DNA of 36,649 nucleotides from Jimgerdemannia flammicorona (GCA_003990765.1 RBNJ01000210.1:1-36649); one strand, 5' to 3'. Numbered from the stretch's first letter, positions 3,624 to 36,353 are shown. The notes: generated by a model not told the origin, from the sequence alone. Program-made: numbers and translations.

Positions 3624-3654
3624 AAGAAATAATATTAATATTTGATCACAATCT

Positions 3655-5694: not shown

Positions 5695-5781
5695 TGCCTT
5701 AATACCTTTCTCCAATAAATGACTTGAAAGTATGTTGTAAAAGTGTGTGTAATGTGAATTGTAGCAGAGAAAGGTGTACTG

Positions 5782-5881
5782 AGAACATTTTGTTGCTTTT
5801 AATAAAGTAACTGGGGGCTTAAGCCAAACTACACCAATCCCCAACCTTGTAATTTGCCTCTATTGAGCCAGGCACATTACA
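5782..5881 (+). repeat. Remnant (3' 100 bp, U5) of the 5' LTR of Gypsy copy A
   Basis: agaacattttgttgctttt...gagccaggcacattaca is near-identical to the end of the 13416-14425 LTR and ends in CA. Confidence 0.92.
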
Positions 5882-5883
5882 TT

Positions 5884-5901
5884 TGGAGGCTCAACTAGAA
5901 A
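5884..5901 (+). promoter_or_regulatory. Primer-binding site, probably tRNA-Pro (copy A)
   Basis: TGGAGGCTCAAC.. begins 2 nt after the LTR. The consensus with copy B, TGGGGGCTCAAC, resembles the complement of eukaryotic tRNA-Pro 3' ends (e.g. the TGGGGGCTC start of the MLV Pro PBS). Confidence 0.7.
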
Positions 5902-6433
5902 GATTTCAAAATTGACATAACTTTTCAACTTACAAAAACCCACAGTCAAACTGGATATATTTGATATAACACCAATCTCTGTCACTACAGGAGAACCAGT
6001 TATCACTAGCATTTAGACAGGAAGAGAAGTAATTACCTCAAGACTTGCCAACTACCCAGCATCAGAAGGATTCCAACCAGAAACCAGTACAGCCTGAAAC
6101 CCTCAACCAGACCAATCTGACAATATAGGCAGCCCTGTTGGAGATTTTGAAGAACTTGCACAAGAACTAAAAGATCTTATTATATAAGCCTGAAATCTTA
6201 CAGACAGATACCCCATACTAGTCTCATCAATCTCACCCATTGAACTCTTACCACCAGCTCTTGCAGAATTAGAAATAGCTCCTACAAGAATACCTAGGCT
6301 CATTCCACTTCATCCAAGGTCCAGAATACTATCCTCAAGATACCCAAGCACCCCCATCTCCAGTGACAGCTCAGAAAGAAAATCAGAATCAGAATCTGGA
6401 CCAGAACCAGAATCAGAAGAAAGTGACAATGAA

Positions 6434-9400
6434 ATGGTCACCTTATTGCCAATTTTTGCAGAATATCCAAAGGAAGACTCCAGAGAATTCCTTGATGAAA
6501 TTGAAGAAATTGCAGTCCTAAAGAACCTCTCAGATGAAAGAAAAATCACCATCTACAAGGCTCAACTCAGAGAACCAGCCAGAGGAATTTTCCACCAAAC
6601 AGCAAATGACCCCTATTTAGAACTGGTAAGATAAATACAAGCAGCAGCATCCTATGAGCTAGAATATATAGCCATGGTCTACTGGCTTATCAAAAAATAT
6701 GCAGGAAATGAAACCCACTACAAGGCTCAAGAATTCATCATAGAGATGAAGATGAATTTTAGAGAATCACTCAGAGCCTTCTTCATAAGAATCCAGAAAA
6801 TAATGCATGCAGCTGGGTTCAATGCTACCAACTAGGATATCATAGGTCCAATGACCTTCATAAATGAGATTCCTCTGAACATTGCTCAGCATGTCTGCAC
6901 TCTGGGCATCAGAAGGTCTGAAGAGCAAGTAGATGAAGCCTAAGGATTCTTTGATGTCAGATAAGGAACTATCTGGAGTAACTATGACAAGAAAGAAGAT
7001 AAAGAAGACATCCTGGTCAAAGCCCTATAAGGACTCCTCCAAGGATAAGAAAGGTCTGAGGAAAGAAGACCAGCTAAAGAAGGAAAGAAGGACAGGAGTG
7101 AAATTCAAGACCTCAGCTCCAAGTTGGACCAATTGGTTAGACAGATTGAAAAACTCATCATATGCAAAAATTGGAGTTATCATGACAACAGAGGACACCC
7201 ACCACAGAGGAGCCAAGGTTATCCACCTAGAGATAACAGGAGCTACCAGAAAGAGAAAAGAAGGTATTCTGTCTGAGATAGAGTCCAAGTCTAATACTTC
7301 TACTGTAGATAATTTATATACTATGCCACCAAATGTGATAACAAAAGAAGTGACTGAAGGGACTCAGAACCACCAAACTGAAGGAATGACACTCAGTACA
7401 AGAAGACTGAAGTCCATTCTGTTGAAGATTTCGAGAAAGCAAGTAACAGTAAAGACTACAGTGACTTAGACTTGTACTCTACTAAGGTTACTATCTGAAA
7501 AACAGTCTACCCAGCAGAGAAGAGGAAAAGACCTATAGGATGGCCATCCAGGAATATTAGCAGAAGAATTATCTAGGAAGAAGATGAAGAGCATGAAGAG
7601 GAGCAAGTAGAAACACCTCTCCAGACTCCTTCACCTTTTGTCCCTGAGACAAATGAGCTGCTACCAGAGGATGAAGAAATAAAACAAGAAGAATGGAAAC
7701 CTACTGCCCCAAAGCCCAAGAAGAAGTACACCCCAAAGACTATGCCTAGAGATATCTACAATGAAGTCTGGCAGAAGATTCAAGAAGCCAAGATGGAGGT
7801 CCCCATTCTGCAGTTCCTACAACTGATACTAGCTAGAGTCCAAAACAAATTGCTGAGAACCACTAGGTCTAGCACTGGCTGTGTTCCAATCCCACAGCAA
7901 GAGTCTACTCCCACACCTATCCAGGCTGCAGAGAGACATATCAGCATCTATTTACATAGAGACATTGGAGAACAAAAAACGAAAATCCTTATAGATACAA
8001 GAGCAACTGTCTGTATCATTGCCAAGCAATTCCTGGACACCCTCCAATGGCCCATTGATGGACCATCCAACCTCAGTATCATAGTAACAGATGGAGCCTG
8101 AACTCAACCCCTTGGAGAAGTATGAAACATCACTATCTCCCTGGGACACATTCAGTTCTCCATCCTGAAAGCTATTGTTACTGAAGCTATCACCTATGAT
8201 ATGATTCTCAGTACTAACTAGATGAAGGAAATGAATGCAGTTGTTGATATCAGACAACAAGTACTCAAGTTTGACTACTGAGGTAAGAAGTACAGAGTTA
8301 AGGTGACCAGCTATGAGCAATTGAAGAAGAAGAAGATCACTATTCAGAAAGAATATGCCAGCAGTAAAGAGTCTACTACAGAAGAGGAAGAAGAATCTGA
8401 AGACGGAAATGATCCCAGACTCAATCCCAGGATCAACCTAGTGGATGACAGACCAGAAGACAATGTCTGGGCTAAGAACACTGTCCCCATTACCATTGGA
8501 GCTATTGCAGGAGAAATCAAAGGATGTCCTATCTGTCTTAAGAGACACAAGTGCCCTGAGCACTCCTCCAAGATCATTGGGACAAGGAATTTGCCTGGCA
8601 CAGCCTGCCCAGAGTACAGAAAGAAGAAGAAGAAATGCAGATATATTTCAGAAATACCTGCAATGGAAGCCACAGAAGTATAAGCAATTTGGGGTCAAGA
8701 ATCATCCAAGGAAGAAGAAGTTTCTGACCAAGAAGTTTCTGAACAAGAAGCACCCAAAGAAGAAGAGGTCTCTGAACTCATTCCCTGAGATGACCCTCAC
8801 TAGACACTATCTGAAGACAATGACCCTTGGAATATAGAAGAAGGACTCAGTATAATCTCTATTATTTCCAAGAAAGAAACTCACCAAGAAAGGACTTTTA
8901 GGCTAGGAGGATGTCCACACCAAATGGTCTTCTACTCCCCCTGAGACTACTGCTACCAGCGCCACTTGCTAGACCAACAGGAGAGATAGAGACCCCAGAG
9001 ACCAGAACCTTCAAATATAGTTGTACAGTCAACTACCTTCCAAGAAGTTACCACTAAGTTGCAAAGCTGATTCAGGGGACAAGGTCTCTTCACTCAGATA
9101 GAAGTATATCCCTTGTCTACTCTTCCTCCAACTTATGATCAAGATGGATACAGATTCCCAAGATAACAAGAAATCAATAACCAAGAACATCATTTTTGAG
9201 CAATGGGATATTGTAATCATAGAAGACACCCAGACTGCCAAGACTGCAGACATCAGAAGATTCACCTCAGTTATGATATTGCAATCCACACTTTGAAGAG
9301 AGGAGATAATAGAAGCCAGATCTGAAAAAGTCAGACCAAGAAGCCAGGAAGAAGAACCCTTAAGATTTATGATTTGGAAGAAGACATCCTAGCTCTCATC

Positions 9401-10417
9401 AGACATATAACCCACCAAGGATAGATAGAAGATGTCACCAACTTCATAGAAGCCCTAGACCCAACAGGAAGAAGAGGAATCAACTACCTCTGAGATCCCT
9501 CCACTGGAGCCAGATGGCCACACCTCAACCTCAGAGCTTAGAGGCTCTCTGCTAGTAGAGCCTCAGCCCAAGAACAGCCCAAACTCAGTAAGGATGTTGT
9601 CCAGTATGCCCTGCTATATCCAAAGGCCAACTCCCTGACCAAAGCCTACTCAGAAGATGTAGGATATAATCTTCACAGTCTGGAGGATGAATTCATCAAG
9701 CCTGAAAAAACATTCATAGTCAGAACTAGACTAGCCATATAGTCATCTCAAGGAACTTACATACAATTGACCTCAAGGTCTAGACTTGCCAGACAAGGAA
9801 TAACTGTAGAAGGAGGAACTATTGACCTAGAATATATAGATGAAATCAAGGTCATCCTACACAATAGCAGTGCAGAATAGCACCAAATTATTAGAAGACA
9901 GAAGATTGCCCAAGCAGTCTTCATGAAGGTCAAGACCCCACAATTACAAGAAGTCTCTGAACTGACTGAAGGAACAAGACAAGCCAAAGGATTTGGAAGC
10001 TCAGATAAGAAGAAAGTATATCTCCTTCAAGTCAACCACCTCAAGAGGAATGTTCCCCAGCAAGTATATCACCAACTAGTCAGACTGCACAAGAATCTCA
10101 TCCTGGAGCCTAGAGAACAAACCATCTTCGAAATCTTTGCACCACCTGACTCCAGAAATCTCTTCTTTGAACCCAATGAAGATATCCCACACCTGGACAT
10201 AGAAGGATATACCTTCTCAAATTAGATAAACCCAGTGCACTCCTGAGCAATCAACCAAAGTTGGGAAACCATCATCCTGCCAAAAGGAGCCATCATAGAA
10301 TACCTGGTGCCTTTTCTCAACCAAACTCATAGAGAAGTTTATGAACTAAATCTATCAGGAAATGGCAAAAGGTCCTAGAAGAAAGGAAAGGCCCCTCTGC
10401 GACCCAGGAGACAGTGA
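6434..10417 (+). pseudogene. gag: Copy A ORF1 polyprotein: Gag (capsid, CCHC), aspartic protease, Cys/His region, dUTPase, dUTPase-like segment; many stops
   Basis: ORF fragments at 6434, 7742, 8303 and 9923 share one frame. Motifs: LPIFAEYPKEDSREF, ILIDTR (DTG in copy B), GYNL/SRSR/GTIDLEY/KIAQ/GFGSS. Confidence 0.85.
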
Positions 10418-11818
10418 AGCCTTCTACCAATATTGGAGAAGAATTGATACCCCAACAATAGCAACAACTAGCAGAACTCCCCAACAAATATCAAGATATC
10501 TTCACTACCAATTATAGCAATCTGCCATAAAACCCATCATATCACTACAGCATAAATACAGAAAATACAACACCCATCTGACAGAAACCCTATAAAATAC
10601 CCTATCACTTAAAAACATTTGAAAAGGAGTACATTCAAGAACTCTTAGAAAATGGAGTCATCCAACCCTCTACCAGTTTCTGGGCTAGCCCTATACTTAT
10701 TGTACCAAAGAAAGGAGGATGGAGACTCTGTGTAGATTACAGGAAACTCAATTCAGTCACTGAAAAGAATGCCTATCCTTTGCTCAGAATCAATGATCTT
10801 TTGGATCAGTTATAAGATACCAGATACTTCAGCAGTATAGACCTCTTTGCAGGATTCCATGAGATCCCCATGGACCTCAAAGATATTCAAAAGACAGCCT
10901 TTCTTGCTCTAGAAAAACTGTTTGAATATCTCTGAATGCCCTTTGGACTTTGCAATATTCTATCCACCTTTCAGAGAATGATGAATTCAGTCTATGCCTC
11001 CTTAATTCACCACTGCCTGATTGTGTACATAGATGATTCTAATATCTATTCAGCCAACTTTGCAGAACATCTGCACTACCTGGAGGAATTCTTCAAGCTC
11101 ACCCATAAGAACCACCTGAGACTCAATGCCAAGAAATACTACTTCAGGAAACAGAAACTTGAATTCCTTGAATTTATAGTTTTGAAAAAGAGAATCCATA
11201 CAGACCAAAGAAAACCAAAAAGATCAACAATTGGTCAGTATCCAAGACCTCAAAGGAAACATTATCATTTCTGATACTGGTATCCTACTACAGAAGATTT
11301 ATCAAGGATTTTGCCTAAATTACTGCTCCAATCCAAGTCCTTCTCAAGAAAGAAGTATTATTCAAATAGACAGAATCATAAGAGAAAGTCTTCAAAAAAC
11401 TCAAGAACTGTATGATTACAGCACTAATCCTTGTCTACAGAAGCTATTCATCTTGTATACAGATGCTTTCAAAGATGGTATAGGAGCAGTTCTAGCCCAG
11501 GAAGGATCTGACTAACAATACTATATAATAGCTTATATAAGCTGAGCTACCAATCAACAGCAGATGAACTATAGCAGCACCAAATTAGAATGCCTTGCAG
11601 TCATATAGATGGTCACTCTGTTCAAGCATTATCTCATTAGAAAAAGGTTCACCCTGATCACAGATCATATAGCCCTCAAATAGCTATTCAACTGCAAGAA
11701 ATCTACCAGAATTCTGGCCTGCTGGATCCTTCTCCTTCAGGATTACAAAATCACCATTATTTACAAAGCAGAGAAAACTCACAACAATATTTATATACTT
11801 TCTCACCAGCCCCAATGA
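10363..11818 (+). pseudogene. pol: Copy A reverse transcriptase-RNase H, disrupted
   Basis: [51 protein letters not shown]. Confidence 0.92.
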
Positions 11819-12879
11819 ATCAGAAAAAGGGTGTCCCAAGGAACTATACTCTAAAGGAAACTTCTCAGACCATCAAGATACAAGAAGATCTCATCCAAAA
11901 AGAACATCAGAAAGCCCACCAAGGACAAGCAAACATAGAAGAAAAGTTGTGACAACATATCAGCATTGGCTCAATCTCAGAATATAAGTTTGGGACATAC
12001 TTAAGAAATGTAACACTTGCCAGAAGTACCAAGAAAGGAAGAACTACCAAGCACCACTGCAACCAATCATACCACCAGACAATATCTTTCAGAGATGGAG
12101 AGTAGATATAATTAGACCCTTATCAGTTACACTAAGAAGAAATAAGTATATTCTAGTATTTGTGGAACATCTGACCAAATGATCCAAGGCTTTCCCAATG
12201 GAAATCACAGATACCTTAACCATTGTAGGCCTTCTCCATAGACTCACCCTCAGATATAAACCTCTAGAAGAACTCATCTCTGACTGAGGTATAGAATTCA
12301 TCAATAATATAATCACAAGTTATGTCTGAATTCACAAGATCCACCTCAAATAGACCACATCATACTACCTCCAGACCAATGGCATAATAGAAAGAATGAA
12401 TCAGACCATCAAGAAAGAACTTGCCCAAGTCAATCCTACCAACTGGGACCTCAGCTTACCTGAGATTCTATGGGAGATTCAGAATACCCATGCTGCCTCT
12501 ACCAAACAAAAGCCATTTGAAATGATTTTTGCTAAGAAAACCAGAACTACTGATTAGAGACCTCCTCAAGAAAGCAGAATAGCTATGTAATCAAGCCCAA
12601 GCCCAGATTATCAAGGTCCAAGAAAGACAAAAGAAGTACTATAACCAGAAACAGAAGGATCAGAAGATTAAGATTGGAGATCAAGTACTAATTTGGAGAA
12701 GTATAATTGAAATGAATTTTGCTACCAAATTGGAGCCCAAATGGAAAAGACCTTATCTTGTACATAACATCTGAGAAACCAGTATCTATTTAAGAAGCAT
12801 GGATAGATGGACCCTCAGAACACCAGTACACATCAACTGTCCCAAGATATACCTCTCCCATCATAAACCAGACAATTGA
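11815..12879 (+). pseudogene. Copy A integrase, in a separate frame starting at an ATG that overlaps the RH stop; disrupted
   Basis: H-QKA-H..C-NT-C zinc finger, VDII, ISD, QTNGIIERMNQ, KLEPKWK(R)PY. Confidence 0.88.
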
Positions 12880-13375
12880 CCAGTATCTTCAGACTCTTGT
12901 TCTGAGTTTATTTTAATCACTCCTGATTTCTCTTCCACAATTCTAACAAGCCAATAGAAACCCCCTTTAGCAAATCCAAACCCATCAAGAGAACCTCACT
13001 TTGGCCAAATGTTTACTATAAGTCCACTAGCTGCAGGCCTACTATGCAATTGGAGAACAGTTGCAGAACCTCCTAGCAGTAAACCTGACCTACATCAGAA
13101 ACTCCACTGGCCTCACCCAGAAAAATACCACTGCTATAGATAGATTATATATAATTTATAAATAAAATATCCCAGCATTGACACAAGTACAATTCTTACT
13201 GAATAATATTCAGAATATGAACCTTGCCACCTACTGGAGTATCATTAACCATGTTGAAATCCTGTTTCCAGAGGAGGAAGAAGAACCTGTTGAGTGGAGT
13301 AACTCTGATTCAAATGAAGATACCAGTTCAGGTATTGATGCTGAAGATGCCTATGTACATTAGAATGATGACTAA
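12863..13375 (+). pseudogene. Copy A extra 3' ORF (170 codons), unknown function, disrupted
   Basis: Same length and relative frame as 27973-28485. Start codon reads ATA (ATG in copy B). Shares YYAIGEQLQ, DRLY and VEILFP.EEEEP..WSN. Confidence 0.75.
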
Positions 13376-13403
13376 AGGAGTGTCTAAGGACAGACCATCC
13401 TTT

Positions 13404-13415
13404 AGTGGGGGCTGA
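13404..13415 (+). promoter_or_regulatory. Polypurine tract (copy A)
   Basis: AGTGGGGGCTGA immediately before the 3' LTR, identical in copy B. Confidence 0.75.
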
Positions 13416-14425
13416 TATGATGAGCAATAGAATTGCACTGCTAAAATCATAAATTAGCTACATACTATATCTAGAGCACTAAGTAACCAAGACTGCTTTA
13501 CTGTACCAACTTATATAATTAGCCAGAGATACCAGAAACAGTATGTTTACCTATACCCTCTAGGTACACCATACCCTCAAGATACACTGTACCCTCAAGG
13601 TACACTATATTCTCAAGGAATACTTGCCATAGTTAGCAATCTATAGTTAGCAATATAGTAACCAGATAGCAACCACAACTGTATAAAATACTCCAGAGAC
13701 AAGAGTGAATAAGCCTCAGTTCTGAAAGACAAAGCAAAAGACAAGTCTGTCTACTATATTTCAAGAGATATACCTACCAAAAGCCACTTGATCCAGAAAG
13801 GATTGCAATACTTAGGAGAAATATCTGCTCTATAGCTACTGCTAGGAGATTGTGAGCTTTGCCCCTTTCCCACTCCAGTCCACTTTCCAATACAAAGATT
13901 GATTAGTATACTTACCAGACTAAGCCTGAAGAACTCAAGTTTCTACTATCTAAGAGAAAGCCACCTTACTCAAACCAGTTTCTAATACAACTTTGCAGTA
14001 ATTCATCATGCAAATAAAACCAGTCTTTAATGTAACTTTGCCAAGAGACTCTTTCTCAGTTGAAGCTGCCATTTTCGAGTATATTCCCAGAGAACTCTAC
14101 CAATTCAGGAAGAATTCATGATACCTGAGTTATTGAATTATCTACCTTCTATAATATCCAAGTTATCCAAGTTATCCAAGTTATCTGCTGTCAAGTTGTT
14201 TGTCTATTATTCTCAGTTGACCCAAGAAGAAAACCCATTCACAAATTGCTGCTATACCCAGAGAACCCATCTCAATAAGGAAATTGCTTGCAGATATCCA
14301 GTTTGACTATTATATCACTAAACACCAAGAACATTTTGTTGCTTTTAACAAAGTAACTGGGGGGCTTAAGCCAAATATCAACCCCCAACCTTGTAATTTG
14401 CCTCCATTGAGCCAGGCATATTATA
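13416..14425 (+). repeat. 3' LTR of Gypsy copy A (~1010 bp)
   Basis: Starts after the PPT (TATGATG, probably a mutated TG start) and ends ..ggcatattata (cattaca in the 5' remnant). TATAAA at 13682. Shares sequence blocks with the copy B LTRs. Confidence 0.88.
13552..13623. repeat. Four 18-bp tandem units (consensus TGTACCCTCAAGGTACAC) in U3 of copy A
   Basis: tataccctctaggtacac / cataccctcaagatacac / tgtaccctcaaggtacac / tatattctcaaggaatac. Confidence 0.85.
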
Positions 14426-14429
14426 ATAT

Positions 14430-17330: not shown

Positions 17331-17334
17331 TTAG

Positions 17335-19273: not shown

Positions 19274-19433
19274 TATAACAGACCCAAAACATACTATTTG
19301 AATTATAACTTAGCCAGATGATGCGAACAATTAGTATACTTACTCAGCATGATGTGACTTCTAGTGTATCATAGTTACTCATATCTGCTACACTTATAAT
19401 TAGCCAAGATACCAGATCAGGATTGTTTACCTG

Positions 19434-19525
19434 TGTCCTGAAGACACACTCATGTCCTGCGGACACACTCATGTCCTGTGGACACACTCATGTCCTGTAG
19501 ATATACTCATGTCCTGTGGACACAC
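19434..19525. repeat. 19-bp tandem repeat (TGTCCTGCGGACACACTCA), ~5 units, in U3
   Basis: Five tgtcctg starts at a 19-bp period, against four in the 3' LTR (28685-28757). Confidence 0.92.
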
Positions 19526-19609
19526 CTGTACTCAGAGGATACACCCAAACATTACCGAAAATAGCAAATCTATAGTTAGCCACATAGTAACCAGATAGCA
19601 ACCAACTTG

Positions 19610-19615
19610 TATAAA
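19610..19615 (+). promoter_or_regulatory. Putative LTR TATA box
   Basis: TATAAA at the homologous position in all three full LTRs (13682, 19610, 28842), downstream of the palindromic arrays. AATAAA follows at 19636. Confidence 0.55.
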
Positions 19616-20922
19616 TTACTCCAGAGACGAGAGTGAATAAAACCTCAGTCCGAAATTGAAGCAAAAGACATGTCTGCCTACCACACTTCGAGAGGAACTC
19701 TACAGCTACTGCTAGGAGATTGTGAGCTTATTTCCCCACTCTGGTCCACTTTCCAATACAAAGAATAAGTCTGAATTGAAGTGCAAACCAAAGAAGCCTC
19801 TAAAGATTGAGCATTGGTCCCCTTATTCCACTCCAGTCCACTTTCCAATACAAAGCTGAAGATTTGCTGCCAAGTTCAAGGAAGAACTTCACCACCTTTG
19901 AGAATTCTTGTTATTGGTTCGCTTGCCAGATAAGCCTGAAGATTTTCGCCTTTTCTGCTTTTTACACCACTTAAGAGAAAGCTGCCTTGCTCAAGTCAGT
20001 TTCTGATGTAACTTCACAGTGGAGCCAGTCTATGATGCAACCCCATGCAAATGAAGCCAGTCTTTGACATAACTTTGCTAAGAGACCCTTTCCAAGCCAC
20101 CCTCCCATTTCCCAGTTAGAAATCACCAATTCAGGAAGAATCCACATCACCTGCTGTTTTTGAGTTATCCACTATATTCCCAGTTGAAACCGATTCAGGA
20201 AGAGTCCGCACCATCCGAGTTAATTCCCAGTTAAGCTGCCATTTTCAAGAAGTCCGCCGATTCAGGAAGAATCTGCGTCATCTGCCATTCCCAAGTTATC
20301 TGCATTCCCAGTGAGCCCGAGAAGAATCTGCCACCAGCATTATTCCCAGTTACTCGAATTATCCGTGCCATCCGAGCTATTATTCCCAGAAGAAGAATCT
20401 ATGCCATATATTCCCAGTGAGCCAAATTGAGTTATCCGCTGGATTATTAGAATATCCTGCATAAGGAACCCACCACGCTACACAGAGATTGTCGTGCTAC
20501 ACAAGATCATCATACAGAAACCACATAAGGAGAACTGCTAAATTGCCAGATCATCACACAGAAATCACATAAGGAGAACTGCTAAATTGCCAGACCATCA
20601 CCCACAAGGAGATCATTGCGCTACACAGAAATCACCCATTACTCAAGAAGGAAACTGCTCATGCTACACACAAATTCTGCCATTCCCAGTTGACCCAGGA
20701 AGGAAACCCATTCACACAAATCACTGCTATATCCAGAGAACCGTCCCAATAAGGAAATCACTCGCAGATATCCAGCTTTGACTATTATACTGCTAAACAC
20801 CAAGGACCTCAGGAATCTTGGAACATTTTGTTGCTTTTTGACAAAGTAACTGGGGGCTCAAGCCAAACTACATCAACTCCCAAACCTTGTAATTTGCCTC
20901 CATTGAGCCGGCACATAACATT

Positions 20923-20940
20923 TGGGGCTCAACTGAGAAG
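20923..20940 (+). promoter_or_regulatory. Primer-binding site, probably tRNA-Pro (copy B)
   Basis: TGGGGCTCAACTGAGA begins 2 nt after the LTR end. Confidence 0.7.
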
Positions 20941-21147
20941 ATTTCAAAATCGACATGACTTTTCAGCTCATAAGAACCCACAGTCAAACTGGATATATTT
21001 GATACAACACCAACCTCTGCCACTATAGAAGAACCAGTCATCACTAGCATTTGGACAGAAAGAGAAGTAATTATCTCAAGACTTGCCAACTACCCAGCAT
21101 CAGAAGGATCCCAACCAGAAGCAGGAGGCAGTACAGCCCGAAATCCC

Positions 21148-21192
21148 CAACCAGATCAACCAGATCAACCAGATCAACCAGATCAACCAGAC
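21148..21192 (+). repeat. 9-bp tandem repeat (CAACCAGAT)x5, in frame with gag (QPD repeats)
   Basis: Read directly from the sequence; copy A has about 2 units at ~6104-6121. Confidence 0.9.
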
Positions 21193-21504
21193 AATGCAGG
21201 CAGCCCTACCAGAAATTTTGGAGAACTTGCACAAGAACTAGAAGACTTTATTACCCAGACCCAACACTTTACAGCCAGCCACCCCACACTAGTCCCACCA
21301 ATCTCACCAATAGAACCCCTACCACAACCTCTTGCAGAACCAGAAGTAGCTCCTACAAGGATACCTAGGCCTATTCTACCCCACCCAAGGACCAAAACAT
21401 CATCCTCAAGATACCCAAGCACCCCTGTCTCTAGTGACAGTTCAGAAAGTAAATCAGAATTAGAATCTGAACCTGAACGAGAATCAGAAGAAAGTGATGA
21501 CAAA

Positions 21505-22560
21505 ATGGCCACCTCATTGCCAACCTTTGTAGGATATCCGGAGGAGGACCCCAGAGAATTCCTTGATGGAATTGAAGGAATTGCAGCCTTGAGAAACCTC
21601 TCAGATGAAAGTAAAATCACCATCTACAAAGCCCAGCTTAGAGAACCAGCCAGAGGAATTTTTCACCAAACAGCAAACAACCCAGATTCAGAACTGGCAA
21701 GACAGATACAAGCAGCATTCTCTAATGAGTTAGAGTATGAGGCCATGGTCCATTGGCTCATTGAAAAGTATGCAGGAAATGAACCCTGCCATAAGGCTCA
21801 GGAATCCATTATGGGAATGAAGATGAATCTTGGAGAATCACCAAGAGCCTTCTTCACAAGAATTCAGAAGAGAATGCATTCTGCTGGATTCAATGCCACC
21901 AACCAAGACATCATAGGTCCAATGACCTTCATGAATGGAATTCCTCCAAATATTGCCCAGCATGTCCACACCCTAGGTATCAGAAGGTCTGAAGAGCAAG
22001 TAGATGTAGCCCAAGGATTCTTTGATGTCAGGCAAGGAACTACCTGGAGTGATCATGATAAGAAGGAAGAAAAGGAAGATATCCTGGTCAAAGCCCTGCA
22101 AGGACTCCTTCAAGGACAAGAAAGATCTGAAGAAAGAAGGCCAGCCAAGGAAGGAAAGAAGGACAGAAGTGAAATTCAAGACCTCAGCTCCAAGTTAGAC
22201 TGATTGGTTGGACAGATTGAAAAACTCACCATACATGAAAATCAGAGCTACCAAGACAACAGAGGATACCCACCACAGAGGAGCCAAGGTTATCTACCAA
22301 GAGATAACAGGAATTACCAGTAAGAAGAAAGAAGGTACCCTGTCTGAGACAGAGCCCAAGTCCAATGCTTCCACTGTAGATAATTCAGACACTATGCCAC
22401 TGAATGTGACAACAAAAGAAGTGACCGAAGGGACTCAGAACCACCAAACTGAAGGAATGACACCCAGTACAAGAAGACTGAAGTCCATCCTGTTGAAGAT
22501 TTCGAGGAAGCAAGCAACAGTGAAGACTACAGTGATCTAGACTTGTACCCTACCAAGGTT
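21505..22560 (+). pseudogene. gag: Copy B Gag: retrotransposon capsid and CX2CX4HX4C nucleocapsid knuckle
   Basis: LPTFVGYPEEDPREFL..GESPRAFFTRI..FMNGIP. In-frame CFHCR*FRHYATEC at 22366-22407. Confidence 0.9.
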
Positions 22561-23009
22561 ACCACCTGAAAGACAGTCTACCCAGCAGAAAAAAGAAAGT
22601 GACCTGTGGGAAGACCATCCAGGAACATCAGCAGAAGAATTATTCAAGAAGAAGATGAAGAACATGAGGAGGAACAAGTCGAAACACCTCCCCGAACCCC
22701 CTCACCTTTTGTGCCTGAGACAAATGAACTGCCACCAGAAGATGAAGAAATGGAACAAGAAGAACGGGAACCTGCTGCTTCAAAGCCTAAGAAGAAGTAC
22801 ACTCCAAAGACCATGCCTAGAGATATTTATAATGAAGCCTGGCAGAAGATTCAAGAAGCCAAGATGGAAGTCCCTCTCCTGCAGTTCTTGCAACTGATAC
22901 CAGCTGGAGTCCGAAACAAATTGCTGAGAACCACCAGGTCTAACACTGGCCAAGTTCCAATCCCACAGCAAGAACCAGCCTCCATCCCTGTCCAAGCAGC
23001 TGAAAGACA

Positions 23010-23390
23010 TGTCAGCACCTACTTACATGGAGACATTGGAGGACAAAAAGCAAAAATCCTTATAGATACAGGAGCAGCTGTCTGTGTCATTGCCAAACGA
23101 TTCTTGGACACCCTCCAATAGCCCATTGATGGACCATCCAACCTCAGCATCATAGTAGCAGATGGAGCCCGAACTCAACCCCTTGGAGAAGTATGAAATT
23201 CACTATTTCCCTTGGACATATTCAGTTCTCCATCCCTAAAGCTGTTGTCACTGAAGCTGTCACTTATGACATGATTCTTAGCACCAACTGGATGAAGGAA
23301 ATGAATGCAGTTGTTGATATTGGCCAACAAGTACTCAAGTTTGACTACCGAGGCAAGAAGTATAGGGTTAAGGTGACCAGCTATGAGCAA
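23010..23390 (+). pseudogene. Copy B aspartic protease
   Basis: KILIDTGAAVCVI (DTG at 23065-23073), IVADG, YDMILSTNW. One stop and a copy-specific 1-bp deletion near 23200. Confidence 0.92.
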
Positions 23391-24689
23391 TTAAAGAAAA
23401 AAAAGAAGGTCACTATTCAAGAAGAATATGCCAGCAGTGAGGAGTCTACTACAGAAGAGGAAGAAGAATCTGAAGATGGAAATGATACCAGACTCAATCC
23501 ACGAATTAATCTGGTGGATGACAGACCAGAAGACAATGTGTGGGCCAAGAACACTATCCCTATCACCATTGGAGCCATTGCAGGAGAAGCCAAAGGATAC
23601 CCTACATGCCTCAAGAGACACAAGTGTCCCGAGCACTCCTCCAAGATCATGGGAAAAAGGAAATTGCCTGGTGCAGTCTGCCCAGAATGCAGAAGAAAGA
23701 AGAAGAAATGCAGATATGTTCCAGAAACACCTGTGACCAAAGCTGCAGAAGTACAAGTAATTTGGGGTCAAGAATCATCTGAGGAAGAAAAAACTTCTGA
23801 CCAAGAAGTTTCTGAACAAGAAGTACCTGATGAAGAAGAAGTCCCCGAACTCATCCCCTGGGATGACCCTCGCTGGACACCACCTGAAGACAATGATCCC
23901 TGGAATACAGAGGAAGGACCCAGTACCATCACCACTATCTCCAAGAAAGAAACCCACCAAGAGAAAGCTTTCCGGCTAGGAAGATGTCCACATCAAATGG
24001 TCTTCCACTCTCCCCGAGACTACTGCTATCAGTGTTATCTGTTGGACCAACAAGAAAGACAGAGACCCCAGAGACCAGAACCCCCAACTACTCTTGCACA
24101 GTCCACCACCTTTCATGAGGTCACCACAAGGTTATAAAGTCGATTTAGGGGACAAGGCTTCTTCACCCGAACAGAAGTATACCCCTTGTCTACCCTTCCC
24201 CCAACCTATGATCCAGATGGGTACCGATTCCCAAGACAATAAGAGATAAATAGCCAGGAACATCATTTCCAAGCAATGGGATATTGTAACCATAGGAGAC
24301 ACCCTGATTTCTGAGATTGCAGACATCAGAAGATCCACCTCAGTCATGATGTTGCAGTGCACACCTTGAAGAAGAGAGATAACCGAAGCCAGATTCGAAA
24401 AAGTCAGATTCGAAAAAGCCAGACCAAGAAGCCTGGAAAAAGAATTCTCAAGATCTATGATTTGGGAGAAGACATCCTAGCCCTCATCAGACATGTAACC
24501 CATCAAGGATGGGTAGAAGATGCCACCAACTTCATGGAAGCCCTTGACCCTACAGGAAGGAGGGGAATCAATTATCTCCGAGACCCCTCTACTGGAGCCA
24601 GATGGCCACACCTCAACCTTAGAGCTTGGAGGCTTTCCGCTAGTAGAGCTTTAGCCTTAGGAAAGCCTGAACTCAGCAAGGACATTGCC

Positions 24690-25095
24690 CAGTATACCCT
24701 GCTGCACCCCAAGGCCAAACCCCCGACCAAAGCCCACCCAGAGGATGTAGGATATGATCTTCACAGCCTAGAGGACAAATCCATCAAGCCTGGAAAAACC
24801 TTCATGGTCAGAACTGGATTAGCCATACAGCCACCTCAAGGAGCTTATATTCAACTGACCTCAAGGTCCGGACTTGCCAGACAAGGAATAACTGTAGAAG
24901 GAGGAACCATTGACCCTGGATATATAGGCGAAATCAAGGTTATCCTACACAACAGCAGTGCAGAATAGCACTGAATCATTAGAGGACAGAAGACTGCCCA
25001 AGCAGTCTTCATGAAGGTCAAGACCCCACAGTTACAGGAAGTCTCCGAACTAACTGAAGGAACAAGACAAGCCAAGGGATTTGGAAGTTCAGATA
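24690..25095 (+). pseudogene. dut: Copy B trimeric-type dUTPase domain
   Basis: All five motifs are present: VGYDL, SRSG, GTIDPGYIGEI, K(T/I)AQ and RQAKGFGSS. Two internal stops. Confidence 0.95.
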
Positions 25096-25450
25096 GGAAA
25101 GAGGTACATCTCCTTCAAGTCAACCACCTTAAGAGGAATGTTCCCCAGCAAGTATACTGGCAACCAGTCAGACTATACAAGAATCTCATCCTGGAGCCTA
25201 GAGAACAAACCACCTTCGAAATATTTGCACCACCTGACCCCAGGAACCATTTCTTTGAACCCAAGGAAGATATCCCATACCTGGACATAGAGGGACACAC
25301 ATTCCCTGACAAGATGAACCCAGTACACTCCTGAGCAACCAACCAAAGTTGGGAGACCATCATCCTGCCAAAAGGAACCATCATAGGACATCTGGTGCCT
25401 TTTCTCAACTGAACTCATAGAGAGGTTTATGAATTAAACCTATCAGGAAA

Positions 25451-26917
25451 CAGCAAAAGGTCCCAGAAGAAAGGAAAGGCCCCTCTGCGACCCAGGAGAC
25501 AGTGAAGCCTTCCACCAACATTGGAGAAGAATTGATACCTCAACAACAGCAACAACTAGTAGAACTTCTCAACAAATATCAAGATATCTTCACCACTGAT
25601 TATGGCAACCTGCCATACAACCCATCATATCACCACAGCATAAATACAGGAAGTGCAACACCCATCCGGCAGAAACCCTATAGAATACCCCATTACTTGA
25701 AAATATTCAAAAAGGAGCATATCTAAGAACTCTTAGACAATGGAGTCATCCGACCCTCTATGAGCCCCTGGGCCAGCCCTATACTTATTGTACCAAAGAA
25801 AGGAGGATGGAGACTCTGCATGGATTACAGAAAACTCAACTCAGTCACTGAAAAGGATACTTATCCTTTGCCCAGAATCGATGACCTTTTGGACCAGTTA
25901 CAAGATGCCAGATACTTCAGCAGTATGGACCTCTTCACGGGATTCCATGAGATCCCCATGGACCCCAAGGACATTCAAAAGACAGCCTTCCTTGCTCTAG
26001 AAAAACTGTTTGAATATCTCTAAATGCCCTTTGGACTCTGCAATGCACCCCCAACCTTCCAGAGGATGATGAATTCAGTCTATGCCCCCTTGATCCACCA
26101 CTGTCTGATTGTATATATGGATGATTCCAACATCTATTCAGAAAATTTCGAAGAACACCTGCACCATCTAGAGGAATTCTTCAAGCTCACCCACAAGAAT
26201 CACTTGAGACTGAATGCAAAGAAATGCTACTTTGGAAAACAGCAACTCAAATTCCTTGGATTCATGGTCTCAAAAGAAGGAACTCATGCAGACCCAAAGA
26301 AAACTGAGAAGATCAACAATTGGCCAGTACCCAAGACTCCAAAGGAAACACTATCATTCTTGATGCTAGTATCCTACTACAGAAGGTTTATCAAAGACTT
26401 TGCCCAAATTGCTGCCCCAATCCAAATCCTTCTCAAGAAAGGAGTGTCATTCAAATGGACAGAATTACAGGAAAAAGCTTTCAGAGAACTTAAGAACTGC
26501 ATGACTATAGCACCAATCCTTGTGTGCCCCAATCTACAGAAGCCATTCATCTTGTATACAGATGCTTCTAAAGATGGCCTAGGAGCAGTTCTAGCCCAAG
26601 AAGGACCTGACCAACAGCACCATGTGATAGCTTATGCAAGAAGGGCCACCAACTAGCAGCAGATAAACTATGGTAGCACCAAACTGGAATGCCTTGCAGT
26701 CATATGAGTGGTCACCCTGTTCAAGCATTACCTCATCAGAAAAAGGTTCACCCTGATCACAGATCATGCAGCCCTCAAATGGCTATTCAACTACAAGGAA
26801 CCTACTGGAATTCTAGCCCACTGGATCCTCATCCTTCAGGATTACAAAATCACCATTATACACAAAGCAGGGAAAGCTCACAACAATGTTGATGTACTTT
26901 CCTGCCAGTCCCAATGA
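25451..26917 (+). pseudogene. pol: Copy B reverse transcriptase-RNase H
   Basis: [75 protein letters not shown]. Single frame with stops. Confidence 0.96.
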
Positions 26918-27989
26918 ACCAGAAGAAGGGTGTCCTGAGGAACTACACCCTAAAGGAAGCTCCTCAGACCACTAAGAAACAAGAGCATCTCATCTGACAA
27001 GAACATCAGAAAGCCCACCAAGGATAGACATGCATAGAAGACAAGATTTGAAAACAATATCAACATTGGCCCCACCTCAGAGCTCAAGTACAGGACATCA
27101 TTCAGAAATGTGATACCTGCCAGAAGTATCAAGGAAAGAAGAACTATCAAGCCCCTCTGCAACCGATTCCCCCACCCACTCACATCTTTCAAAAATCGGG
27201 AGTAGATGTAATTGGACCTCTACCAGTTACACCAAGAAGAAACAAATACATCCTTGTATTTGTGGAACATCTGACCAAGTGGCCCAAGGCTTTCCCAATG
27301 GAAATTGCAGATGCCTTAACCATTGTAGGCCTCCTCCATGGACTCACACTCAGATATGGACCTCCAGAAGAACTTATCTCTGACCAAGGCACAGAATTTG
27401 TCAACAACATAATCACAAGTTATGCCAGAATTCACAAGATCCACCTCAAAAGGACCACATCATACCACCCTCAGACTAATGACATGACAGAAAGAATGAA
27501 TCAGACCATCAAGAAAGGACTTGCCCAAGTCAATCCTACTAATTGAGACCTCTGCTTACCTGAAGTCCTATGGGAAATTCGGAATACCCCTGCCATGTCC
27601 ACCAAACAAAACCATTCGAAATGATGTTTGCTAAGAGAACCAGAACTGCTGACCATGAGAATCTCGGAGACCTCCTCAAGAAGGCAGAACAGTTACGAAA
27701 TCAAGCCCAAGGACAGATTATCAAAGCCCAGGAAAGACAAAAGAAGTACTATAACCAAAAACAGATGGATCAGGAGATCAAGATTGGAGATCAAGTCCTA
27801 GTTTGGAGAAGTATGATTGAGACAAACTTTGCTACCAAACTAGAACCAAAATGAGAAGGACCTTATCTTATACACAACATCAGAGGAACCAGCATCTATT
27901 TAAGAAGCATGGATGGACGAACCCTGAGAACACCAGTACACATCAATTGCCTCAAGATATACTTCTCACACCATGAACCAGAGAATTGA
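26914..27989 (+). pseudogene. Copy B integrase (HHCC, DDE core, GPY/F C-terminus; no chromodomain), separate ORF
   Basis: ATG at 26914 is in frame with HQKAH..W..CDTC, GVDVIGPLP, SDQGTEF and YHPQTN..ERMNQ. KLEPK(W)EGPY follows a copy-specific 1-bp deletion near 27610. Confidence 0.92.
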
Positions 27990-28485
27990 CAACCACCTCC
28001 AAACTCTTGTCCTCAGTTCCCTCCAAGCACTACCAGTTCCCCTATCTCAGTTCCAGGAACCCAATGGAACCTATCTTCAGAGAATCCGAGTTCATCAAGA
28101 GAACCTCACTTTGGCCAAGAGGCTACTCCAGGTCCACCAGCTATAGGTATATTATGCAATTGGAGAACAATTGCAGGATCTTCCTCTCCCAGACCTAGCC
28201 TATGTCTGAAACACCACTGGTCTGAACAGAAGGAATACTACTGCTGCAGACAGACTATACACAATATACAAACAAAATCCTTCTGCCTTAATCCAGGCCC
28301 AGTTTTCCCTGAATGACCTCCAAAGGATGACACTGCCCACCTACCTCAGCATCATTCACCAAGTGGAGATCCTATTCCCTAAGGAAGAAGAAGAACCCCT
28401 GAAATGGAGTAACCATAGCTCAGATGATGATGATGGAACAGGTATAGATGCAGAAGCTGCTTATGTCTATTGGGATGATGACTGA
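27973..28485 (+). pseudogene. Copy B extra 3' ORF (170 aa, acidic C-terminus), unknown function; two stops
   Basis: CACCATG start. Translation: MNQRIDNHLQTLVL..ENLTLAKRLLQVHQL*VYYAIGEQLQ..AADRLYTIYKQNP..SLNDLQRMTLPTYLSIIHQVEILFP..YWDDD. Conserved in copy A. Confidence 0.8.
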
Positions 28486-28512
28486 AGAATAGTCTGGAAC
28501 AGACTACCCTTC

Positions 28513-28524
28513 AGTGGGGGCTGA
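28513..28524 (+). promoter_or_regulatory. Polypurine tract (copy B)
   Basis: AGTGGGGGCTGA abuts the TGT of the 3' LTR. Confidence 0.78.
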
Positions 28525-30152
28525 TGTAACAGACCCAAAATGTACAACTTAAATTATAACTTAGCCAGATAATGCAAACAATTAGTATACTTACTCAGCA
28601 TGATGTAACTTCCAGTATATCATAGTTACTCATGCCTGCCACACTTATAATTAGCCAAGATACCAGATCAGGATTGTTTACCTGTGTCCTGAAGACACAC
28701 TTATGTCCTGCGGACACACTCATGTCCTGCAGACACACTCATGTCCTGTAGACACACCTGTACCCAGAGGATATATCCAAACATTACTGAAGATAGCAAA
28801 TCTATAGTTAGCCATATAGTAACCAGATAGCAACCAACTTGTATAAATTACCCCAGAGACGAGAGTGAATAAAACCTTAGTCTGAAATTGAAGCAAAAGA
28901 CAAGTCTGCCTACCACACTTTGAGAGAAACTCTACAGCTACTGCTAGGAGATTGTGAGCTTATTTCCCCACTCTGGTCCACTTTCCGATACAAAGAACGA
29001 GTCTGAATTGAAGTGCAAACTAAAGAAGCCTCTAAAGATTGAGCATTGGTCCCCTTATTCTACTCCAGTCCACTTTCTGATACAAAGCTGAAGATTTGCC
29101 GCCAAGTTCAAGGAAGAACTTTGTCACCTTTGAGAATTCTTGTTATTGGTTCACTTGTCAGATAAGCCTGAAGATTTCTGCCTTTTCCTCTTTTTACACT
29201 ACCTAAGAGAAAGCTGCCTTGCTCAAGCCAGTTTCTGACACAACTTCGCAGTGGAGTCAGTCTATGACACAACCCCACACAAATTAAGCCAGTCTTTGAT
29301 GTAACTTTACCAAGAGACCCTTTCTAAGCCGCCCTCCCGTTTCTCAGTTAGAACCCACTGATTCAGAAAGAATCCACATCACCTACCGTTTTTGAGTTAT
29401 CTACCATATTCCTAGTTGAAACTGATTCAGGAAGAGTCTATGCCATCTGAGTTAATTCCCAGTTAAGCTGCCATTTTCAAGAAGTCCACTGATTCAGGAA
29501 GAATCCACATCATCTGCCATTCCCAAGTTATCTGCATTCCCAGTGAGCCCAAGAAGAATCCTCCACCAGCATTATTCCTAGTTACTTGAATTATCCATGC
29601 TATCCGAGCTATTATTCCCAGACGAAGAATCCACACCATATATTCCCAGTGAGCCAAATCGAGTTATCAGCCAGATTATCAGAATGTCCTGCATAAGGAA
29701 CCCACCATGCTACACAGAGATCGTCATGCTACACGAGATCATCATGCAGAAACCGCATAAGGAGAACCACTAAATTGCCAGATCATCATGCAGAAATCGC
29801 ATAAGGAGAACTGCTAAATTGCCAGGCCATCATGCATAAGGAGATCATCATGCTATACAGAAATCACCCATTACTCAAGAAGGAAACTGCTTGTGCTACA
29901 TACAAATTCTGTCATTCCCAGTTAACCCAGGAAGGAAACTCATTTACACAAATCACTGCTATACCCAGAGAACCATCCCAATAAGGAAATTGCTTGCAGA
30001 TATCCAGCTTTGACTATTATACCACTAAACACCAAGGACCTCAGGAATCTTGGAACATTTTGTTGCTTTTTGACAAAGTAACTGGGGGCTCAAGCCAAAC
30101 TACATCAACCCCCAAACCTTGTAATTTGCCTCCATTGAGTCGGCATGTTACA
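28525..30152 (+). repeat. 3' LTR of copy B (1628 bp)
   Basis: TGTAACA...TGTTACA perfect 7-bp inverted termini; direct repeat of 19274-20920. Confidence 0.97.
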
Positions 30153-30680: not shown

Positions 30681-30764
30681 CAGCACCTCTCTCTGCTACA
30701 ATTCACATTACACACACTTTACAACACACTTTCAAATCGTTTATTGGAGAAAGATATTAAGGAG

Positions 30765-32799
30765 ATGTCAACCAGTAAGCGAGCTGATGCATATCCTAAG
30801 TCGGGTGGACCTGGGGCCTTCGACTGGCAGCATGTCAGGAGAGGGTATAGACTGGGGATGGGGTCTTTTGGTGGATCGAGTGGACTGGGCAGCTCAGGGG
30901 GTAGAGGAGGCACTGGTGGGGGGGCTGGAGGGTAGCAGGGAGGGAGCTTTGCAGATGCACTTAAGGCTGGGGGTTGGCTGAGGGGTGCCCACAGTGGACA
31001 GGCAGGAGGAAAGGGGAAGCAGAAGGTTGGCGATGCTGGGGGAGCTGGGCCTTCACTGGTGGGAGGTGGAGGGAGTGGAGTAGTGGCTGGGGGTAGTGGT
31101 GGGACTGCTGATGGTAGTGTGACGGTGAATCAGAAAAAAAAAAGAGATGTGACAGCTGATGGCCAGGGGGGGCAGGGGCTCCCGATGCGGAAGGGGGACC
31201 TGGCTGATGGTGTAATGGGACTGGTGGTGGCCCCATTGCTCAAGAAGTCAATCTCGGAGTTTGCGGCTACCTTGTGCTTCTGGGGCTTGGCAGTGATGGT
31301 GAGGATGGTTCTGGAGCTTATCTCAAGGCAGGTGGTGGGTGCGGCCTCGGTGAAGTTCTTGAAGGGCATGGAGGGGGTTGAGGTGAGCTTTGAGGAGGCA
31401 GGCCTACTGGATGAGGCCATGAAGACAGGAGTGGTGGTTGGGGAGGTGGTGGTCCCCATGGTAAGGTGCTTGAGGTGGGACCCCAGGGTGGTGCAGCTTC
31501 TAGTGAGGGGGGTGCCCACAGTGACTAAGGAGGAGACTAGGAGGAGGGTGGAGGAGGTGATGGTAGAGTATGGAGACGTGGTGGACATTGGATTTCAGTT
31601 GTGGGAGGGGACAACTATCAGGACAGGCAACATCGATGTCAGGATTTGGTTGGCAGGGAAGGAGGCCACAGAGAAGATGAGTGACTGTCCCTCGGTGCTG
31701 ATGTGGGGGGCCATCATCTGCAAGGTGTCAAGGGTGAAGGGGAGTGAAGAGGAGGAGGAGGACTTGTTGGAGGTGCTAGAGGAGTTGGGTGGTGCTGTGG
31801 AGAGGAGGGCGAAGGCCTGGAAACTGTATGAGGAATCGACATATCTGGAGGTTGTGGGCGGGAGGCGTATCCATATGGATAAGAAGCAGTGGGAGTGGGT
31901 CCAGGGATGCAAGAGGCAGAAGGAGCTGTTGGTGAGTATGACAGGTAGAGGGAAGAAGAAGTCGGGTGAAGCTGAGGAGTCTGGAGGTGCTGAGGCCAGT
32001 GTCTGAGCTGATAAAGGAGGAGAGGAGGTAGAAGCGAAGGAGGCAGAGGCTGGGAAGGGGCTGGACAAGGACCCATTTGCTGATGGTACCTTTGAAGTGT
32101 GGGAGCCAGAGTTGGATGCCACCCTCCCCCCCACTTATCAGGAGGGGCCCAGTGGGGAAGAGAGGGACGACAGAGGATACACAGATGCAGGGGGCCCAGC
32201 AGGTGCACTTTAGGGTCCCTGATGTGGCTCAAGAGGGTCAGGTGGTGGCAGTTGGTGAGGATGAGCTGGTGGATGTCCCTGAGGGGAAGTGGGATGAGGC
32301 TGCTAGTGTAGGAGCTGACACCATGATGTTGGATGCAGGGCGACTGGGGACTCCAGGAGGGAAGGAGGTGGGGAACTTGTTGTGGGTACACAAGGTGATG
32401 GATAACCTCGCAGCAGAAGCATTGGAGGAGGTAGACCTGTGGGTGATACCTGAGGAGCATTGGGTAAGGATCCTGCATGGAGATGGAATGGTGGAGGTAC
32501 TGAAGGTGGAGATTCTGGTGATTTTGCTAGAGGAGGAGGGATATGAGGTTGATGAGGTGAGGAAGGCAGAGCTGGGGGTGGTTGCCAGTGAGTGGGCAGA
32601 CTACTGTTGGGCAGAGCATCGGGGTCTGCAGCTCTGGCAGGAGGCCTGTCTGGAGTATCGCAAGGATTTTGAGGAGCATGAGGATGGGGCAATGGTAGAA
32701 CTTCTGAGAGAGTTGGAGGCACAGGAAGCTGGGGAGAGGGAACTGGCTGCTGAACTTAACTTGGACTTGGTGCAGGAGAGGCAGGATGCCGACTTATAG
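30765..32799 (+). pseudogene. LINE copy 2 ORF1 (~680 aa; Gly-rich N-terminus, SFADAL motif, RRM-like core, acidic helical C-terminus)
   Basis: Two stops (30933, 32004) and a +1 shift in the C-run near 32130. LLVRGVP..EYGDVVDI..IRTGNIDVRI. Confidence 0.87.
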
Positions 32800-32831
32800 A
32801 GGATGGACTCTGATATATATCATTATTCTTT

Positions 32832-35800: not shown

Positions 35801-36353
35801 GTGGAGAAATGTCATGCTGAATTTCTGCTCGGGGCATTTAGTAGAGGGTGGACAATTTGACTGCAAGGAGTGTTACGATGTTGGGCAGGCTGGGGGTCAT
35901 GTATAGATGCTGAAACATTGGCTGGGAGAGTGTGAGGTCTTGGGAGATTTTTGGGCTGAGATAGGAGATAGACTGGGTGTGGGGTGTTGGCAGGTGGGGG
36001 AGGGGGGTCGCTGGGAGGACTTAAGATCTCAGCTTGTAGGTGGGGTGGGGGATAGTTGGCTCACTGTAGGATGGGTATTAGCAGTATGGGTGGGACTGGC
36101 AGGCCATTGACTTTTTGTATTTGAGGAGGGGCAGTGGTTGGGGCTGCATGAGAAGGTGTTAAGGTGGGAGGAGCTGGTGGGGGATCTGCTGACCAGATGG
36201 TGGGTGGGTTGGGGTCCTCAGGGAGGATGATATCGTAGTTTGGTGATGAGGATCTGTGAACAGAGTGGTGGGAGGGTGGGGATAGTGTTCGACAAAGTGG
36301 TCTTTCACAGAGAAGAGGTAGAGGAGGTGGGCCCCCCTAGGGGGATTGGATAG
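32832..36353 (+). pseudogene. LINE copy 2 ORF2 (~1170 aa; APE endonuclease, RT, CX2C..HX4C), single frame with scattered stops
   Basis: SLNVNGL, LLQD, GDFN, RIDW, SDH; APGEDG, DQEKAYD, QGDPLS, FADD, YLGI; CKEC..HWLGEC. All ORF fragments share one frame. Confidence 0.95.

Follow-up and report, generated by a model that had tools for sequence, protein, structure and literature searches.

Extra open reading frames (ORFs) after pol, and a dUTPase placed between the protease (PR) and the reverse transcriptase (RT), are already known in Gypsy-type retrotransposons (PMC2864245; PMC5408684; PMC10309623). The bdelloid rotifer elements Vesta, Juno, and TelKA, as presented in PMC5408684, are Gypsy-like, bear a dUTPase, and have an additional ORF after pol, which in some cases is not env-like. 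The products of these rotifer ORF3s are GDSL esterases/lipases, DEDDy exonucleases, or transmembrane or coiled-coil proteins. Among fungal Gypsy elements, PosPlaTy3-5 has its dUTPase between PR and RT, and fungal elements in the same study contain unexplained extra ORFs, labeled "add. ORF" (PMC2864245). The Cer1 element of C. elegans encodes CERV, a lineage-restricted accessory protein without homology outside its clade, which is needed for Cer1's own expression cycle. CERV is 517 aa long, is translated from a 5-exon mRNA that shares the gag exons, and has a G-domain-like fold with a Cys-rich loop (PMC10309623).

The element described here combines several of these features. Like the rotifer elements it has a dUTPase and an extra ORF after pol, here called ORF3, while its closest named RT relatives are fungal and its ORF3 product matches none of the families reported for the rotifer ORF3s. 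The position of the dUTPase is that of PosPlaTy3-5, and the unexplained extra ORF recalls those of the fungal elements, a likeness of description only. The fungal elements of PMC2864245 carry chromodomains, whereas the present element does not. ORF3 shares lineage restriction with CERV and differs from it in being 170 aa, located after pol, predicted to be all-helical, and cysteine-free in its intact relatives. Retroviral and errantiviral env genes and chromovirus chromodomains occupy the same position as ORF3, after the integrase (IN) and before the polypurine tract (PPT) and 3' LTR; env is at least three times longer. No description of the ORF3 protein was found in the main texts of the literature. 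What is new is a family of small soluble proteins, predicted to be helical, with a conserved acidic-aromatic C-terminal motif.

The window (the whole 36,649-nt stretch of DNA analyzed) contains two copies of one Ty3/Gypsy LTR retrotransposon family, and both are dead. All coordinates of the copies and of their genes, LTRs, and PPT refer to the + strand. Copy A spans 5782..14429; its 5' LTR is reduced to approximately the last 100 bp (5782-5879), and its 3' LTR runs from ~13416 to 14429. Copy B (19274-30152) is bounded by a 5' LTR at 19274..20920 and a 3' LTR at 28525..30152, which are 90.2% identical to each other, and the 3' LTR has the ends TGTAACA...TGTTACA. The 3' LTRs of the two copies differ in length (~1.0 kb in copy A vs 1.63 kb in copy B) and align with big gaps.

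Pfam matches in the open pieces of copy B come in the order dUTPase, RVT_1 (E-values of 4e-11 and 1.1e-18), RT_RNaseH_2 (1.1e-20), and integrase core (3e-08). The protease and the zinc-binding region scored below their Pfam cut-offs, with a weak aspartic-protease match located before the dUTPase. The dUTPase domain of pol (24714..24962; PF00692, E 3.2e-17) lies between the protease and RT and has a dN/dS of 0.196 between the two copies, indicating purifying selection. The integrase (27052..27989) consists of a zinc-binding region, core, and C-terminal module and is broken by stops. Pol stops directly after that C-terminal module, at a TGA at 27987..27989 (the same stop is at 12877-12879 in copy A), and a chromodomain is absent at the integrase C-terminus. 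The PPT region, read by eye, is at 28513..28524 and adjoins the 3' LTR. Paired LTRs with inverted ends, a PPT beside the 3' LTR, and the gag-PR-RT-RNase H-IN order identify the element as a Ty3/Gypsy LTR retrotransposon. Its closest named RT-RNase H relatives come from Rhizophagus and Dentiscutata (49-51% identity), the best unnamed match is 66% identical, and the dUTPase is also found in two relatives. Rfam and tRNA scans of the whole window gave no match.

Two stretches upstream of the recognizable pol domains have features of their own. The gag frame of copy B (20974..22203, stop to stop; first ATG at 21505) has a dN/dS of 0.169, and a short P-D-Q repeat run in this frame, at 21140-21200 (+), lies 5' of that ATG. 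Between the protease and the dUTPase, approximately 335 aa of pol (23130-24137, +) have no Pfam match and a dN/dS of 0.144 between the copies; a Cys- and Lys-rich patch is located inside this stretch.

ORF3 of copy B occupies 27973..28485 and consists of 170 codons followed by TGA; codons 58 (TAG) and 79 (TGA) are internal stops. Its counterpart in copy A, at 12863..13375, begins with ATA rather than ATG and has seven internal stops, at codons 18, 28, 36, 53, 56, 101, and 167. As the initial annotation had stated, the ORF is exactly 513 nt in both copies, it is interrupted by internal stops, and the third-position codon pairs that were quoted in it are present in both copies. The same annotation gave WDDD as the end of the tail, which is literally the case in copy B; in copy A there is a stop at the W and the remainder reads N-D-D. 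The A/B alignment is free of gaps over the whole of ORF3, with the first gap 11 columns past the stop codon. ORF3 fills the interval from the pol stop to the PPT, its own stop being 39 nt before the LTR, and nothing but the PPT lies in those 39 nt. On the opposite strand of this region there is no ORF of at least 50 aa.

Relatives of ORF3 were searched for in proteins and in DNA. A word-indexed search of 5.8 billion proteins yielded 95 candidates, five of which scored; among 1.84 billion cluster representatives, a profile search detected only five relatives, all close. Two relatives are uninterrupted (171 and 172 aa) and match over the full length at 71% and 67% identity; overall, two of the nine database proteins of the family are full length. 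A metagenome scan gave 354 pattern matches, two of which were confirmed (loci L001 and L002), and in both loci ORF3 lies directly after the integrase. L002 is the most divergent relative, with 49% identity, 167 codons, and two stops, and it keeps the terminal motif. The length of ORF3 among relatives ranges from 167 to 172 codons. All four DNA copies are broken, with 2, 7, 2, and 3 stops, and in all four (A, B, L001, and L002) ORF3 is 3' of a Gypsy integrase, so that the accessory ORF in the env position proposed from the window holds in every DNA context and also has uninterrupted relatives.

A search among longer proteins found no relative in 1164 candidates, and no ORF3 relative was found in viral contigs or prokaryote genomes. 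ORF3 is lineage-restricted, with no detectable relative outside its own family. The sequencing runs that match parts of the window are soil metagenomes and one coded organism, and no RNA run was among those listed. In R. irregularis, transposons are known to carry CG methylation (PMC8647823). With moderate confidence, the probable host is a soil fungus close to the Glomeromycotina. The alignment used for the family (A4) holds 11 of the 13 available sequences; it omits P0005, which has an N-terminal extension from another frame, and P0009, which diverges past residue 67.

Purifying selection on ORF3, as the initial annotation had suspected, is apparent from the comparison of the two copies. They differ at 158 of 513 sites, distributed over codon positions 1/2/3 as 51/30/77. 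With the NG86 method, for which codons with a stop were dropped and 161 of 170 codons were used, dN/dS is 0.157, far from a neutral value near 1, and the synonymous excess has a binomial p of 7e-12. The effect is specific to the frame, since the other two frames of ORF3 give dN/dS values of 0.82 and 1.41. Transitions account for 101 of the 158 differences. The signal also stays when C>T changes are left aside: transversions alone are distributed as 17/9/31 over the three codon positions (p 0.0015), which argues that transition decay is not the source of the coding signal. Since most gag-pol segments give dN/dS values of 0.14-0.25 between A and B, ORF3 is about as constrained as gag-pol.

The same result was obtained with the other DNA copies. 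When A, B, L001, and L002 are compared in pairs, all six pairs show a synonymous excess (p from 4e-7 to 3e-12); five pairs have dN/dS values of 0.08-0.20, and in one pair the synonymous sites are saturated. Both window copies are dead, and some of the A/B divergence is therefore neutral; the selection signal dates from the period when both lineages were active. Contigs of four sequencing runs, at 80% likeness, show many diverged copies. The 12 contig rows listed, out of 15, contain no indel within ORF3, and 10 of the 18 contig variants listed inside ORF3 are at third codon positions (a manual count, not significant).

The divergence between the two copies is not even along their length. A/B identity falls from 0.81-0.89 to 0.63-0.75 at ~28000, exactly at the pol stop (20974-27990 compared with 28000-28600). 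Synonymous pS is 0.65 in ORF3 vs 0.23-0.43 in most gag-pol segments, and third-position identity is 54% in ORF3, compared with 83% for the integrase and 75% for gag. Such a jump in ORF3 and the LTR suggests that subfamilies have recombined or that the 3' module evolves separately.

The ORF3 protein is laid out as ~135 residues that are predicted to be entirely helical, followed by an acidic tail of ~36 residues. Its pI is 4.5-5.2 overall and 4.5-4.7 in the intact relatives, P0002 and P0003, from which cysteine is absent. Residues 1-60 of the core are weakly basic in the intact relatives, with a net charge of +2 to +3. The tail has a net charge of -12 to -18 (-15 to -18 in the intact relatives) and conserved aromatic residues; it ends in W-D-D-D, and a second W follows a run of E. 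Two AF2 runs, with alignments of 7 and 11 rows, returned helices only, at poor pLDDT values of 46.4 and 44.5. The ESM Atlas's own model of P0002 has a pLDDT of 0.76 and a pTM of 0.68. Structure matches to this model in the ESM Atlas reached a TM of at most 0.37, to histidine-kinase helices, and feature matches of 0.90-0.93 (at most 159 of 256 shared features) were to unrelated families; both were treated as chance.

Known domains were looked for in the protein without success. Neither Pfam nor a PDB sequence profile search, both at E<=10, gave any match for ORF3, so no DNA-binding or other recognizable domain was found in the helical core with these two resources, and hhalign of ORF3 against the element's own gag returned a probability of 0.3%. 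The highest 19-residue Kyte-Doolittle mean is 0.94-1.14, and a segment of transmembrane strength is absent, in agreement with the initial annotation, which had described the protein as lacking a transmembrane stretch and as not env-like. An env identity, which would call for a signal peptide, a membrane anchor or fusion segment, and several hundred residues, was rejected: the protein is 170 aa long, has no transmembrane segment or Pfam match, and is free of cysteine in P0002 and P0003. A chromodomain, a beta-sheet with one helix that is fused to the integrase, was likewise rejected, ORF3 being a separate ORF with its own ATG, predicted helices only, and no Pfam match. These observations support reading ORF3 as a real, selected, soluble, non-env, non-chromodomain accessory gene.

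We consider it likely that ORF3 is the genuine third gene of a narrow Ty3/Gypsy lineage that has a dUTPase and no chromodomain, and that its product has a general adaptor role. This confidence covers the gene features described above together with the general adaptor reading; the detail of a transactivator is outside it. As an adaptor, the protein would use its helical core to bind a component of the element or a protein of the host, and its acidic-aromatic tail to recruit host machinery.

The leading candidate for that machinery is the transcription co-activators. VP16 of herpesviruses and Tas of foamy viruses also have a structured core and a C-terminal acidic-aromatic region. By analogy with VP16, Tas, or Tax, the tail could recruit co-activators and thereby boost LTR transcription, which we put forward tentatively, as a possibility with less than even odds. 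The layout of ORF3 is similar to that of VP16 and Tas, with no sequence or fold similarity, and its terminal motif is more strongly conserved than activation domains usually are. An activation domain has to be tethered to DNA, through a DNA-binding domain or a DNA-bound partner, and the lack of any DNA-binding family match for ORF3 in Pfam or PDB sequences counts against this reading.

The composition of the tail was compared with a published rule that describes acidic activation domains. The rule has VP16 H1 as its anchor and takes a 39-aa tile with a charge of at most -9, at least seven W+F+Y+L residues, and a diagonal term (equation 1 of PMC10550315). It considers composition alone, and its calibration used human transcription factors. 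The ORF3 tail falls within equation 1 in six of seven sequences; these count as five of six independent ones, P0007 being identical to the first 144 aa of L002. Copy A falls outside the rule owing to the stop at the W. As background, the rule accepts 9 of 13,162 tiles when all six frames of the window are scanned, and ORF3 itself supplies one of the nine. The terminal motif is identical at 13 of 19 comparable positions between P0002 and L002 (manual count). A motif kept this well suggests that the tail may make a specific peptide-pocket contact rather than act as a fuzzy activation domain.

If the tail does act on transcription, the 18-19-bp tandem repeats in U3 would be candidate response elements. 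Arrays are present in the 3' LTR of copy B (28685..28757 on the + strand, 19 bp x 3.8), in its 5' LTR (19434-19525, 19 bp x 4.8), and in copy A (13551-13618, 18 bp x 3.8), and the repeat units are only partly alike between the two subfamilies. A retrotransposon-encoded transactivator, with its core on a host DNA-bound factor at the U3 repeats and its tail on co-activators, is a more doubtful proposal. ORF3 and the LTR might then diversify jointly as one regulatory module, which would explain why both are ~2-3 times more diverged than gag-pol between A and B.

Acidic-aromatic tails are also known from Arp2/3 binders. They occur in histone chaperones too, and acidic-aromatic peptides bind histones. 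The tail of ORF3 could therefore have a partner in chromatin, with the core binding the integrase or pre-integration complex and the protein guiding integration in place of the missing chromodomain. The lack of a chromodomain in pol, the location of ORF3 where chromoviruses carry theirs, and the strong negative charge of a tail that also holds aromatic residues all speak for such a tether. However, Pfam and PDB sequences gave no match to a histone chaperone, and the insertion sites in the window consist only of nested repeats, and we regard a chromatin tether as unlikely.

Another explanation is that ORF3 antagonizes host defence, either as a silencing suppressor or as an inhibitor of restriction by nucleic-acid modification (for example, a DNA mimic), and so complements the dUTPase. 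The protein is strongly acidic and the element carries a dUTPase. In addition, the CpG observed/expected ratio is 0.00-0.17 in every part of the window, from which it follows that the host mutates or methylates repeats heavily. This evidence is nevertheless circumstantial, and the protein has no similarity to known inhibitors in Pfam, PDB sequences, or the ESM Atlas. There is only a small chance, in our estimate, that defence is the target of ORF3.

The Arp2/3 binders offer one more partner for the tail. If it were an acidic/DDW-type Arp2/3-binding motif (an acidic stretch near the C-terminus in which acidic residues flank a tryptophan; PMC2156081 and PMC7274804), ORF3 could hijack the cytoskeleton and link particles or RNA to actin patches or transport. 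An acidic run does precede the terminal W-D-D-D, with W at position -4, and the second W comes after the run of E; the tryptophan of the EWE motif of N-WASP sits in a positively charged pocket (PMC7274804). On the other hand, the terminal W is preceded by Y or H rather than by an acidic residue, and the likeness is confined to a short motif. No WH2 or other Pfam match was found at E<=10, and the full WCA module is therefore absent. Cytoskeletal hijacking appears improbable.

A further view would be that ORF3 has no function, being either a decayed env remnant or a frame that is open by chance. The stops in all DNA copies and the lack of homologues outside the family could be read in this way. 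Against it stand the frame-specific purifying selection in all six pairs, a length that is kept at 167-172 codons down to 49% identity, and the two uninterrupted relatives; for an env remnant in particular, there is neither a transmembrane segment nor a match to an env family. We consider a non-functional ORF3 very unlikely.

The start of ORF3 was defined from its position relative to the end of pol. A conserved ATG lies at or slightly 5' of the pol stop in all four DNA contexts, with copy A reading ATA there, and 9 of the 10 rows that reach the N-terminus align a Met at the start. In copy B the pol stop is 14 nt past the ATG and the two ORFs overlap by 17 nt, while L001 and L002 have an ATGA that combines the ORF3 start with the pol stop. 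Relative to pol, the window copies have ORF3 in the +1 frame, and L001 and L002 have it in the -1 frame. This switch from -1 to +1 arises because the window copies lack 4 nt just 5' of the ATG; the indel sites are 27961-27972 in the window, ~1204-1219 in L001, and ~1778-1793 in L002, and the last Pol residues are altered. Variants at 27961 and 27966 are also seen in the sequencing-run contigs. In-frame stops are present 5' of the ATG in the ORF3 frame of the window, L001, and L002. Programmed frameshifting into ORF3 as a C-terminal Pol extension, which would fit the overlap with the end of pol and a frame that is open for 8 to 20 codons 5' of the ATG, is highly improbable given the +1 and -1 frames on either side of the 4-nt indel and the conserved ATG with in-frame stops before it. 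Since the frame relative to pol differs between the subfamilies, ORF3 is a separately started gene rather than a frameshift extension of Pol, with the conserved ATG as its predicted start.

ORF3 could be expressed in either of two ways consistent with this arrangement: from a spliced subgenomic mRNA, or by termination-reinitiation where stop and start overlap. The proximity of stop and start (ATGA in L001 and L002, 14 nt in the window copies) is that of termination-reinitiation gene pairs. In the 110 nt upstream of the ORF3 start, no TURBS-like motif or ribosome-tethering element was recognized by eye. Near the ATG there was no clear splice acceptor by eye, only generic AG sites. In LTR retrotransposons generally, ORF3 products typically come from spliced messages, according to PMC5408684.

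Extra genes in LTR retrotransposons show a drift towards virus-like complexity, and there are very few non-env examples with a known role. ORF3 is a clear-cut example, with a short, soluble product that is clearly under selection, a well-defined start, a conserved C-terminal motif, and intact versions in nature. The lineage that carries it also bears a dUTPase, and its host mutates or methylates repeats heavily. If the transactivator reading were true, a regulatory gene of the complex-retrovirus type would be present in a probably fungal Ty3/Gypsy element.

The two copies are embedded in other repeats. The spacer between them (14430-19275) is 4.8 kb long and AT-rich, with a CpG observed/expected ratio of 0.00 and a GC content of 30% overall and 24% locally. 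The flanks, at 18-5776 and 30684-36307, are inverted copies (76-77% identical) of another repeat, and their strong GC skew is approximately -0.35 to -0.5 in the left flank and +0.3 to +0.5 in the right one. A third fragment of this flank repeat, at 17793-18794, matches 34373-35371 at 63.5%. By eye, the + strand frames of the right flank contain motifs that resemble the endonuclease and reverse transcriptase of a non-LTR (LINE-type) element.
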